Shown in pieces: positions 24,102 to 31,452 of a DNA stretch of 64,000 bases; the stretch's first letter is position 1, and each line of letters begins with the position of its first letter. Where the stretch lies: the NCBI RefSeq assembly GCF_057098645.1, contig NZ_CM169472.1, one strand, 5' to 3'. A program made the translations under genes and the position numbers. The notes beneath the pieces are model-generated. The model saw only the letters and a list, made by a program, of their open reading frames with translations, did no database searches and was not told the origin of the DNA.

Positions 24102-25241
24102 ATGTCAGAATTTTTGCCTTTTTCGCGACCAGCAATGGGCGTGGAGGAACTCGCTGCAGTTAAAGAGGTTCTCGAATCTGGTTGGATCACAACCGGTCCG
24201 AAGAATCACGCGCTTGAACAAGCCTTTTGCCAGTTGACGGGAAATCAGCATGCCATCGCGGTCAGTTCAGCCACCGCCGGAATGCATATCACGCTAATGG
24301 CGTTGGAAATTGGCAAGGGTGATGAAGTGATTACGCCTTCCCTGACCTGGGTTTCAACCCTCAATATGATTTCCTTGTTGGGTGCAACGCCGGTAATGGT
24401 GGATGTCGACCGCGATACGCTGATGGTCACGCCTGAAGCTATCGAGTCAGCCATTACGCCACGCACTAAAGCCATCATTCCGGTGCATTATGCCGGTGCG
24501 CCAGCAGATATTGACGCCATTCGCGCCATTGGCGAACGTTACGGCATCGCAGTTATCGAAGATGCAGCCCATGCCGTCGGTACGTATTACAAAGGGCGAC
24601 ATATTGGCGCAAAAGGTACCGCTATTTTTTCGTTTCACGCCATCAAAAATATTACCTGTGCGGAAGGTGGCCTGATTGTTACTGATAATGAAAACCTTGC
24701 CCGCCAGCTACGGATGCTGAAATTTCACGGTCTGGGTGTCGATGCCTATGACAGACAAACCTGGGGCCGTGCACCGCAGGCTGAAGTCTTAACGCCGGGC
24801 TATAAGTACAATCTGACCGATATTAACGCCGCGATTGCCATGACACAGTTAGCCAAATTAGAGCACCTCAACACCCGTCGGCGCGAAATTGCCCAGCAAT
24901 ATCAGCAAGCACTGGCAGCTCTCCCCTTTCAGCCATTAAGCCTTCCCGCCTGGCCGCACGTTCACGCCTGGCATCTGTTTATTATTCGTGTCGATGAACA
25001 ACGTTGTGGTATCAGTCGCGATGCGTTGATGGAAGCGTTAAAAGAAAGAGGTATTGGTACCGGGTTACATTTCCGCGCCGCTCACACACAAAAATATTAT
25101 CGCGAGCGTTTTCCCACGCTGTCGTTACCGAATACCGAATGGAATAGCGAACGCATCTGTTCGTTGCCGCTGTTCCCGGATATGACTACCGCCGATGCCG
25201 ACCGCGTCATCACAGCCCTTCAGCAACTCGCAGGACAATAA
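24102..25241 (+). CDS. arnB: UDP-4-amino-4-deoxy-L-arabinose--oxoglutarate aminotransferase
   Basis: [44 protein letters not shown]... (DegT/ArnB PLP fold); start 24102 chosen for the GGAAGGA SD; in-frame alternatives at 24084 and 24069. Confidence 0.93.
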
Positions 25242-25244
25242 GCC

Positions 25245-26213
25245 ATGTTTGAAATCCACCCTGTTAAGAAAGTCTCGGTGGTTATTCCCGTTTATAACGA
25301 GCAGGAAAGCTTACCGGAATTAATCAGGCGCACCACCACAGCCTGTGAATCACTGGGGAAAGAGTATGAGATCCTGCTGATTGATGACGGCAGTAGCGAT
25401 AATTCCGCGCATATGCTGGTCGAAGCCTCACAAGCGGAGAACAGCCATATTGTGTCTATTTTGCTTAACCGCAATTACGGGCAGCATTCAGCGATTATGG
25501 CGGGATTCAGTCACGTTACTGGCGACTTAATTATTACCCTCGATGCCGATCTCCAGAATCCGCCAGAGGAGATCCCCCGTCTGGTGGCAAAAGCCGATGA
25601 AGGTTACGACGTGGTAGGGACTGTACGCCAGAACCGCCAGGACAGCTGGTTTCGCAAAACCGCTTCGAAGATGATTAACCGGCTTATTCAGCGCACCACC
25701 GGCAAAGCGATGGGTGACTACGGTTGTATGCTGCGCGCCTATCGCCGTCATATTGTCGATGCGATGTTGCACTGCCATGAACGCAGCACCTTTATCCCGA
25801 TTCTGGCGAATATCTTCGCCCGCCGTGCCATTGAAATTCCAGTGCATCATGCCGAGCGTGAGTATGGTGAATCCAAATACAGCTTTATGCGCCTGATTAA
25901 TTTGATGTACGACCTGGTGACCTGCCTTACCACAACGCCGCTACGTATGCTGAGTCTGCTCGGCAGCATTATTGCGATTGGAGGTTTTAGCATTGCGGTG
26001 CTGCTGGTGATTTTACGCCTGACCTTCGGACCACAATGGGCGGCAGAAGGTGTCTTTATGCTATTTGCCGTGCTGTTTACTTTTATTGGCGCTCAGTTTA
26101 TCGGCATGGGATTGCTCGGTGAATATATCGGCAGGATCTACACCGATGTCCGCGCCCGCCCCCGCTATTTTGTTCAGCAAGTTATCCGTCCATCCAGCAA
26201 GGAAAATGAATAA
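25245..26213 (+). CDS. arnC: Undecaprenyl-phosphate 4-deoxy-4-formamido-L-arabinose transferase
   Basis: 322-aa [57 protein letters not shown]... (GT2 fold + two C-terminal TM helices). Confidence 0.95.
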
Positions 26214-29082: not shown

Positions 29083-30734
29083 TGAAATCGGTACGTTACC
29101 TTATCGGCCTCTTCGCGTTTATTGCCTGCTATTACCTGTTACCGATCAGCACGCGTCTGCTATGGCAACCCGATGAAACGCGTTATGCGGAAATCAGTCG
29201 AGAAATGCTGGCATCCGGCGACTGGATTGTGCCCCATCTGTTAGGGCTACGTTATTTCGAAAAACCCATTGCCGGATACTGGATTAACAGCATTGGGCAA
29301 TGGCTATTTGGCGCGAATAACTTTGGTGTGCGGGCAGGCGTTATCTTTGCGACCCTGTTAACTGCCGCGCTGGTGACCTGGTTTACTCTGCGCTTATGGC
29401 GCGATAAACGTCTGGCTCTACTCGCCACAGTAATTTATCTCTCATTGTTTATTGTCTATGCCATCGGCACTTATGCCGTGCTCGATCCGTTTATTGCCTT
29501 CTGGCTGGTGGCGGGAATGTGCAGCTTCTGGCTGGCAATGCAGGCACAGTCGTGGAAAGGCAAAAGCGCAGGATTTTTACTGCTGGGAATCACCTGCGGC
29601 ATGGGGGTGATGACCAAAGGTTTTCTCGCCCTTGCCGTGCCGGTATTAAGCGTACTGCCATGGGTAGCGACGCAAAAACGCTGGAAAGATCTCTTTATTT
29701 ACGGCTGGCTGGCGGTTATCAGTTGCGTACTGACGGTTCTCCCCTGGGGACTGGCGATAGCGCAGCGGGAGCCTGACTTCTGGCACTATTTTTTCTGGGT
29801 TGAGCATATTCAACGCTTTGCACTGGATGATGCCCAACATAGAGCTCCGTTCTGGTACTACGTGCCGGTCATCATTGCCGGTAGCCTGCCGTGGCTGGGA
29901 TTACTCCCCGGTGCACTGTACGCAGGCTGGAAAAACCGCAAGCATTCCGCAACCGTCTATTTGTTGAGCTGGACGATAATGCCGCTGCTGTTTTTCTCCG
30001 TCGCTAAAGGTAAATTGCCCACCTATATTCTTTCCTGCTTTGCACCTCTGGCAATGCTGATGGCGCATTACGCTTTGCTGGCAGCAAAAAATAATCCTCT
30101 GGCGTTGCGGATTAATGGCTGGATTAACATCGCTTTTGGCGTCACTGGCATTATTGCCACATTTGTGGTCTCCCCCTGGGGACCAATGAACACGCCGGTG
30201 TGGCAAACCTTCGAGAGCTATAAAGTCTTTTGTGCCTGGTCGATTTTTTCGCTATGGGCATTTTTCGGCTGGTACACCTTAACAAACGTCGAAAAGACCT
30301 GGTCTTTTGCCGCGCTTTGCCCGCTGGGGCTGGCGTTGCTGGTAGGATTTTCAATTCCTGACAGAGTCATGGAAGGAAAACATCCGCAATTTTTTGTCGA
30401 GATGACACAAGAATCACTTCAGCCAAGCCGCTATATTCTTACTGATAGCGTCGGTGTTGCCGCAGGTCTGGCATGGAGCCTGCAACGCGATGACATCATC
30501 ATGTATCGCCAGACAGGTGAGTTGAAATACGGCCTTAATTATCCGGATGCGAAAGGGAGATTTGTCAGCGGTGATGAGTTCGCAAACTGGCTTAATCAAC
30601 ATCGTCAGGAGGGGATTATTACACTCGTGCTTTCGATTGACCGCGATGAAGATATCAACAGTCTCGCCATTCCGCCCGCAGATGCCATCGATCGTCAGGA
30701 GCGTCTGGTGCTGATTCAGTATCGTCCCAAATGA
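29082..30734 (+). CDS. arnT: Undecaprenyl phosphate-alpha-Ara4N:lipid A arabinosyltransferase
   Basis: 550-aa polytopic membrane protein [53 protein letters not shown]... Confidence 0.95.
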
Positions 30735-31066
30735 TCTGGCTAACATTAGTCTTTGCCAGCTTGCTTAGCGTTGCCGGGCAGTTGTGTCAGAAACAGGCAA
30801 CCTGCTTTGTGGCGATAAACAAACGGCGCAAACATATCGCGCTGTGGCTGGGACTGGCGCTGGCTTGTCTTGGTCTTGCCATGGTGCTCTGGCTGCTGGT
30901 CTTGCAGAACGTACCGGTAGGCATTGCCTACCCGATGTTAAGTCTGAATTTTGTCTGGGTGACGCTGGCTGCAGTAAAACTGTGGCACGAACCGGTATCG
31001 CCGCGTCACTGGTGTGGGGTGGCGTTCATTATTGGTGGCATTGTGATCCTCGGGAGTACGGTGTAA
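30731..31066 (+). CDS. arnE: Undecaprenyl phosphate-Ara4N flippase subunit ArnE (SMR-like)
   Basis: 111-aa four-[73 protein letters not shown]...; 4-nt overlap with arnT. Confidence 0.9.
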
Positions 31067-31452
31067 TGGGCCTGATGTGGGGATTATTCAGCGTCATTAT
31101 TGCCTCAGTTGCGCAATTAAGCCTGGGTTTTGCGGCGAGTCATCTGCCGCCGATGACGCACTTATGGGATTTTATCGCGGCTCTGTTAGCTTTTGGGCTG
31201 GATGCCCGGATACTGTTACTCGGGCTGCTGGGTTATCTGCTTTCCGTTTTTTGTTGGTATAAAACACTACATAAACTTGCGCTAAGCAAAGCCTATGCCT
31301 TGCTCAGTATGAGTTATGTGCTGGTATGGATTGCTTCAATGGTACTTCCCGGCTGGGAAGGGACTTTTTCGCTGAAAGCACTACTGGGAGTAGCCTGTAT
31401 TATGAGCGGGTTGATGCTGATTTTCCTGCCCACGACAAAACAACGTTACTGA
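31066..31452 (+). CDS. arnF: Undecaprenyl phosphate-Ara4N flippase subunit ArnF (SMR-like)
   Basis: ATG at 31066 shares one nucleotide with the arnE stop (TAATG); [36 protein letters not shown]..., 128 aa; the ORF-track call from 30784 overlaps arnE out of frame. Confidence 0.88.

Follow-up and report, generated by a model that had tools for sequence, protein, structure and literature searches.

Consecutive stop/start overlaps in the Escherichia coli arn operon and their conservation in the Enterobacterales

In this study, we analysed how the genes of the arnBCADTEF operon adjoin one another in a stretch of Escherichia coli DNA of 64,000 nucleotides (nt) (contig NZ_CM169472.1 of NCBI RefSeq assembly GCF_057098645.1), the whole of which is called the window below. 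From arnC to arnF, five consecutive gene pairs share 1 or 4 nt at their stop/start junctions, and the same two overlap sizes recur at 345 of 393 arn junctions (88%) in related species. On the sequence evidence, this arrangement is more than chance, the comparison between species being a stronger test than the count within the window. We consider it probable that the arn genes are coupled by termination-reinitiation, with a contribution that varies by junction and with downstream genes that would depend on the translation of their upstream neighbours. The overlaps themselves are correct, ordinary, and already known, and the phenomenon is a textbook one; what we add is small, namely, the breadth of the conservation together with its turnover between the two overlap sizes, the conserved absence of a Shine-Dalgarno (SD) motif at arnE, and support for the shorter of the proposed arnB starts.

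Results

Five overlaps in a row

Seven co-directional genes in the order B-C-A-D-T-E-F occupy positions 24102 to 31452 on the plus strand, and each of their products scores above the curated cut-off of its NCBIfam equivalog (NF008658, NF007986, NF005998, NF011923, NF009784, NF011625, and NF002816). The locus is the E. coli arnBCADTEF (pmrHFIJKLM) operon for the polymyxin-resistance modification of lipid A with aminoarabinose, and the operon status of these genes is established knowledge. The 7,351-base arn stretch is matched in 5,420 of 5,426 complete E. coli genomes, with top matches that are 100% identical, which identifies the window by sequence match as E. coli chromosome. Gene annotation was transferred to the whole window from RefSeq NZ_CP028379.1, a near-identical strain whose sequence is in register from position 3370 onward and differs from there on by scattered single-base changes and one short block (61112 to 61147); on the window's own sequence, each of the 54 transferred coding sequences is open as far as a single terminal stop. 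This annotation places after arnF a convergent pmrD and then the men genes.

The first cistron, arnB (24102 to 25241, 379 amino acids, residues 1 to 378 aligned to positions 1 to 378 of NF008658), is not overlapped and is separated from arnC (25245 to 26213, 322 amino acids) by a 3-nt gap (+3; 25241/25245). At each of the junctions that follow, the start codon of one gene is fused to the stop codon of the gene before it. The arnC stop and arnA start share 1 nt in TAATG (26211 to 26215), preceded by a conserved AGGAA SD motif inside arnC; arnA (26213 to 28195, 660 amino acids, residues 1 to 649 aligned to positions 1 to 649 of NF005998) and arnD (28192 to 29082, 296 amino acids) share 4 nt in ATGA (28192 to 28195), with a weak SD motif; arnD and arnT (29082 to 30734, 550 amino acids) share 1 nt in TGATG (29080 to 29084), the least conserved of the arn junctions; arnT and arnE (30731 to 31066, 111 amino acids, all aligned to positions 1 to 111 of NF011625) share 4 nt in ATGA (30731 to 30734), with no SD motif; and arnE and arnF (31066 to 31452, 128 amino acids) share 1 nt in TAATG (31064 to 31068), with a conserved GGGAG SD motif inside arnE. 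The RefSeq models of arnD and arnT translate cleanly, and both, like arnC and arnF, match their equivalogs. The five overlap sizes that the first-pass annotation had given for arn are thus exact on the window sequence. The same junctions, with near-identical flanking sequence, are found in E. coli K-12 MG1655, and every overlap, whether of 1 or 4 nt, sets the next gene in the -1 frame.

Among co-directional gene pairs, both of E. coli and of prokaryotes at large, -4 and -1 are the commonest spacings (PMC10666635, PMC12548453). In E. coli, the range from -8 to +6 takes in 707 of 2,987 unidirectional pairs (24%), -4 being the commonest value and -1 the next (PMC10666635). All six arn junctions fall inside this range. 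Five of them belong to the class of -4/-1 overlapping unidirectional pairs, compared with 9 of the 32 other same-strand pairs of this operon-rich window (binomial P of ~0.008, calculated post hoc).

Conservation of tight apposition across species

For the comparative set, a single ArnD scan of species-representative genomes yielded 80 other Enterobacterales loci, ranging from Escherichia albertii to Proteus, Serratia, Dickeya, Erwinia, and Pantoea, whose ArnD proteins are 60 to 85% identical. Their arn genes were located by tblastn, extended to the stop codon, and given the start nearest the E. coli-equivalent N-terminus, the stop of the neighbouring gene not being used. In these models, a -4 or -1 spacing is found at arnC-arnA in 77 of 78 species, at arnA-arnD in 71 of 80, at arnD-arnT in 47 of 79, at arnT-arnE in 74 of 78, and at arnE-arnF in 76 of 78; 37 of the 77 complete loci carry the full set of five overlaps, and another 35 lack just one. 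The two sizes are swapped between genera (the -1 of Escherichia at arnC-arnA, for example, is a -4 in Citrobacter), and one or the other is kept even though the flanking codons shift by 1 to 2 codons between genera. What the alignments indicate as maintained is tight apposition, not a particular junction sequence. Two junctions depart from strict overlap. At arnD-arnT, about a third of the species have gaps of 2 to 16 nt, occasionally more; and arnB-arnC, already a gap in E. coli, overlaps in only 6 of 78 relatives, is mostly +1, and lies within -8 to +6 in 74 of 78.

The strict alternation of overlap sizes in E. coli (-1, -4, -1, -4, -1) was considered as a feature with a meaning of its own and rejected as coincidence: its probability is 1/16 at equal odds, and it is absent from all 77 other complete loci, where -4, -4, -4, -4, -1 is commonest. 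The alternation also makes no difference to frame, a -1 shift resulting from either size, and the turnover of these patterns between loci looks neutral.

Ribosome-binding motifs and RNA structure

The five overlapped starts differ widely in the SD motifs that precede them inside the upstream gene, which are present and conserved at arnA and arnF, weak at arnD and arnT, and absent at arnE. Predicted free energies of the anti-SD duplex in E. coli are -5.4 for arnA, -3.3 for arnD, -3.8 for arnT, +0.6 for arnE, and -6.9 for arnF, and the medians in relatives are -6.0 for arnA (consensus GAGGAA), -7.2 for arnF (GGGAG or GGAGG), and 0.0 for arnE. No SD-like sequence was seen in the E. coli region checked for arnE (30706 to 30734), and an SD motif is absent at arnE in 95% of 78 Enterobacterales, yet in 74 of these 78 species arnE still starts on the arnT stop.

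Local RNA structure was assessed by folding positions -99 to +30 of all 25 tight junctions of the window, each against 100 dinucleotide shuffles. By this local test, the six arn junctions are not more structured than their shuffles (z scores from -1.7 to +1.4, four of them above +0.8). Promoter-like and terminator-like sites inside the arn operon likewise occur at the counts expected from shuffles, and no Rfam family was matched in the arn region. These internal-site counts, and overlaps that leave no intergenic space, are compatible with a single transcript. Upstream of arnB, a direct repeat resembling a PmrA/BasR box (CTTAAGgttaaGTTAAT, 23987 to 24003, plus strand) has one mismatch to YTTAAK-N5-YTTAAK; the window contains seven such one-mismatch matches where about three are expected, so that a single match is weak. 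At ~100 nt upstream of arnB, the repeat fits what we take to be the position of the PmrA-activated arn promoter, and it is likely the putative promoter control site of the operon.

Start codons

The first-pass annotation had further held that the overlaps constrain start choice and exclude longer open reading frames (ORFs). This is mostly moot, because the overlapping ATG is the first possible start at 12 of the 15 overlapping junctions of the window and the overlap alone excludes none; the annotated starts themselves are upheld by protein profiles and conserved N-termini. Zero upstream in-frame start candidates exist for arnC (whose ORF offers no earlier start codon), arnA, arnD, arnT, and arnE, and among the 15 genes downstream of overlaps only arnF, glpB, and glpC have longer in-frame alternatives; in these three genes it is homology, not overlap, that decides. 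NCBIfam equivalogs match all seven Arn proteins from residues 1 to 4, at profile positions 1 to 2, and in the 80 species the N-termini agree to within 2 codons for 465 of 471 gene models. For arnF, which has five upstream candidates, we rejected the long ORF (GTG at 30784, 222 amino acids), as it adds 97 residues matching nothing in the profile; the frame upstream of arnF is open for 1 to 123 codons depending on the species, which also counts against the longer form.

The start of arnB, which no overlap constrains, differs between annotations, with 385 amino acids in K-12 RefSeq (from an ATG equivalent to window position 24084) and 379 in the annotation of the Prokaryotic Genome Annotation Pipeline (PGAP; ATG at 24102). 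Among 77 species, 43 have no upstream start at all and only 3 have an ATG six codons upstream, and the N-terminus MS(D/E)FLPFSRP is conserved together with an AAGGA motif that precedes it. Species comparison and the NCBIfam profile together favour the start at 24102 and argue against the longer ORFs from 24069 and 24084.

Other overlaps and features of the window

Overlaps join 15 of the 38 same-strand neighbouring pairs of the window. Outside arn, the first-pass annotation had named junctions in nrdB-yfaE and in the glp, men, and nuo operons, all of which do overlap; it did not set apart glpA-glpB, whose overlap of 11 nt (12333 to 12343, plus strand) falls outside the -4/-1 class, and it omitted nuoK-nuoL (4 nt, 48815 to 48818, minus strand). 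The other pairs, which with nuoK-nuoL make nine further members of the -4/-1 class, are nrdB-yfaE (1 nt, TGATG, 4683) and glpB-glpC (4 nt, 13589 to 13592) on the plus strand and, on the minus strand, menC-menE (4 nt, 33174 to 33177), menB-menC (1 nt, 34136), menD-menH (4 nt, 35763 to 35766), nuoJ-nuoK (4 nt, 49114 to 49117), nuoG-nuoH (4 nt, 51211 to 51214), and nuoE-nuoF (4 nt, 55324 to 55327). Of all these junctions, menD-menH is the only one in the window with published coupling experiments (PMC6728339, PMC10666635). The nuo operon is otherwise tightly packed. Among its few junctions that are not tight, nuoF and nuoG lie 52 nt apart, a gap mostly filled by the cis-regulatory Rfam motif nuoG RNA (53945 to 53987, minus strand, 50.3 bits), and nuoL and nuoM are separated by 163 untranslated nt (46814 to 46976, minus strand).

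At the end of the arn operon, ArnE weakly matches the ArnF equivalog model as well (E value of 5e-13; region 30731 to 31452), as would be expected if the two flippase subunits are paralogues with adjacent genes. The stop codons of arnF and the convergent pmrD overlap by 7 nt (TTACTGA, 31446 to 31452); with no space for a terminator between the two genes, each transcript must extend in antisense orientation into the neighbouring gene. The 7-nt overlap recurs in E. albertii, the two genes are 0 to 2 nt apart in nine Citrobacter loci, and pmrD was not detected in the remaining loci of the comparative set.

Elsewhere, the only other Rfam matches in the window are two tandem naRNA4 (REP-type) elements between nrdA and nrdB (3288 to 3358 and 3376 to 3446, minus strand, 76.4 bits each). 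Register with the O145 reference is lost upstream of ~3370, which points to an indel or a difference in copy number at this place. The reference annotation (NZ_CP028379.1) also carries a partial hypothetical pseudogene beside rpnE (15944 to 16177) and a frameshifted M28 peptidase pseudogene between an elaD-like gene and yfbM (42531 to 43147).

Discussion

The first-pass annotation had called the overlapping arn genes translationally coupled and had described the arrangement as ordinary operon architecture. The second description holds in full: -4 and -1 are the commonest spacings, and Huber et al. 2023 (PMC10666635, supplementary file 3) already give the K-12 arn distances (3, -1, -4, -1, -4, -1). 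For the first, the geometry is confirmed, and coupling at arn is what we infer from that geometry, a literature search for arn-specific coupling, polarity, or start sites having returned nothing relevant and no arn experiment. Among native E. coli pairs with 4-nt overlaps, four of five were found to be coupled through the fragment from -99 to +30, a result that argues for termination-reinitiation (PMC6728339). Spacing matters in such pairs: with the stop shifted 38 nt upstream, menH was no longer reinitiated, and a spacing of +2 already costs 5 to 70% depending on the pair (PMC10666635). Applied to arn, a ribosome that ends at the upstream stop would find the next AUG within its own footprint and restart there, and the output of each enzyme would thereby be tied to that of its upstream neighbour. 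The share of coupling probably differs by junction. At arnA and arnF, with SD motifs embedded in the upstream gene, reinitiation would probably be supplemented by some de novo initiation; the motifs of arnD and arnT are weak; and arnE, with no SD motif, would depend almost wholly on ribosomes finishing arnT. The strongest case made here for true reinitiation is arnE, which lacks a ribosome-binding site and is nevertheless kept on the arnT stop. An SD motif within the upstream gene usually contributes to reinitiation in E. coli, and Huber et al. 2019 found its role to vary from essential to none (PMC6728339). In its stronger form, which we hold to be about as likely as not, the proposal makes the operon a ribosome relay, with ArnE made obligately by ribosomes that have just ended on arnT. 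If true, the relay would keep one flippase subunit at a low dose linked to ArnT, with arnF, which has a strong conserved SD motif besides its overlap, topped up independently, and arnE would be a clean natural example of SD-independent reinitiation in E. coli. ArnE/ArnF is listed as a heteromeric complex pair, a class enriched among overlaps (PMC10666635).

Several observations weigh against coupling throughout arn, beside the silence of the literature just mentioned, and most of them also speak for a simpler account, in which the overlaps are a neutral by-product of packing and of the easy origin of ATGA and TRATG, without any role in regulation, and free 30S subunits start translation of every arn cistron on its own. 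Overlaps of -4 evolve easily, since three of their four bases are already there in the start codon (PMC12548453), and part of the pattern may be a mutational attractor under weak selection. The -4 and -1 spacings interconvert freely, and the gaps at arnD-arnT in about a third of the species mean that strict overlap is dispensable there. The bioBF pair is uncoupled and initiated wholly de novo despite its 4-nt overlap, and menD-menH is only ~60% coupled, with 40% de novo initiation (PMC6728339). In arn itself, the conserved SD motifs of arnA and arnF, together with start regions predicted to be reasonably open (probability unpaired of 0.48 and 0.56), make independent initiation plausible at both. 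We nonetheless regard a wholly neutral origin as unlikely, given that 88% of 393 junctions are exactly -4 or -1 despite changes of 1 to 2 codons in their flanks, that four of the five tested E. coli overlap pairs are coupled, and that independent initiation is hard to see for arnE, which has no SD motif in 95% of species.

Two further explanations find less room in these data. Coupling could come about by RNA unfolding, with a structure that masks the downstream start and is melted by the upstream ribosome so that a new ribosome can bind, as is established for other E. coli pairs (PMC12548453; introduction of PMC6728339); the start regions of arnT and arnE are indeed predicted to be less open (mean unpaired probability over -15 to +5 of 0.28 at arnD-arnT and 0.38 at arnT-arnE). 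Local folds of the arn junctions are no stabler than dinucleotide shuffles, however, and the newly binding ribosome would still need a binding site, which arnE lacks, so that we hold this mechanism to be quite improbable for arn. We attach still less probability, and very little in all, to the idea that some overlaps are annotation artefacts, with true starts farther upstream (such as the arnF GTG at 30784) or downstream and a chain partly imposed by gene callers. The five upstream candidates of arnF, those of glpB and glpC, and the discordant arnB annotations are what such an account can draw on; opposed to it are the equivalog matches beginning at residues 1 to 4, the 97 unmatched residues of the long ArnF, the variable open frame upstream of arnF, the absence of any upstream candidate for arnA, arnD, arnT, and arnE, and N-termini that agree within 2 codons in nearly all models. 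Termination-reinitiation, to a degree that differs between junctions, thus remains the explanation that we prefer.

In practical terms, the outcome is mostly housekeeping, in that the annotated genes and starts of an operon with clinical relevance for polymyxin resistance are confirmed, and it opens no new question, as -4/-1 overlaps and coupling are well described. An arn gene that receives an insertion, a tag, or a premature stop is likely to lower not only the transcription but also the translation of the next gene, most of all at arnE after arnT, and in the design of "non-polar" arn mutants or C-terminal tags the stop/start junctions are best left intact.

Among the closest known systems are the -4/-1 pairs for which Huber et al. 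described coupling by termination-reinitiation (2019, PMC6728339; 2023, PMC10666635). These share with arn the ATGA and TRATG motifs on a polycistronic mRNA, and menD-menH of this window was among the test cases, whereas arn is known there by distance alone, from a supplementary table. The arn operon differs from those pairs in having five overlaps in succession behind a +3 gap, and in the conservation of arnT-arnE without an SD motif, where Huber et al. report usually strong SD motifs for the downstream genes of overlapping pairs. The classical E. coli cases of coupling (trpB-trpA, atpHA, and rplJL; PMC12548453) resemble arn in that translation of an adjacent upstream gene promotes that of the downstream cistron at very short spacing; several of them unmask a structured initiation region, in contrast to the arn junctions, which show no excess of local structure. 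With arnBCADTEF/pmrHFIJKLM of Salmonella and other Enterobacterales, the E. coli operon shares its gene order, the equivalog matches of all seven proteins, and the tight junctions kept in 80 species; its exact pattern of overlap sizes is not repeated at any of the 77 further complete loci.

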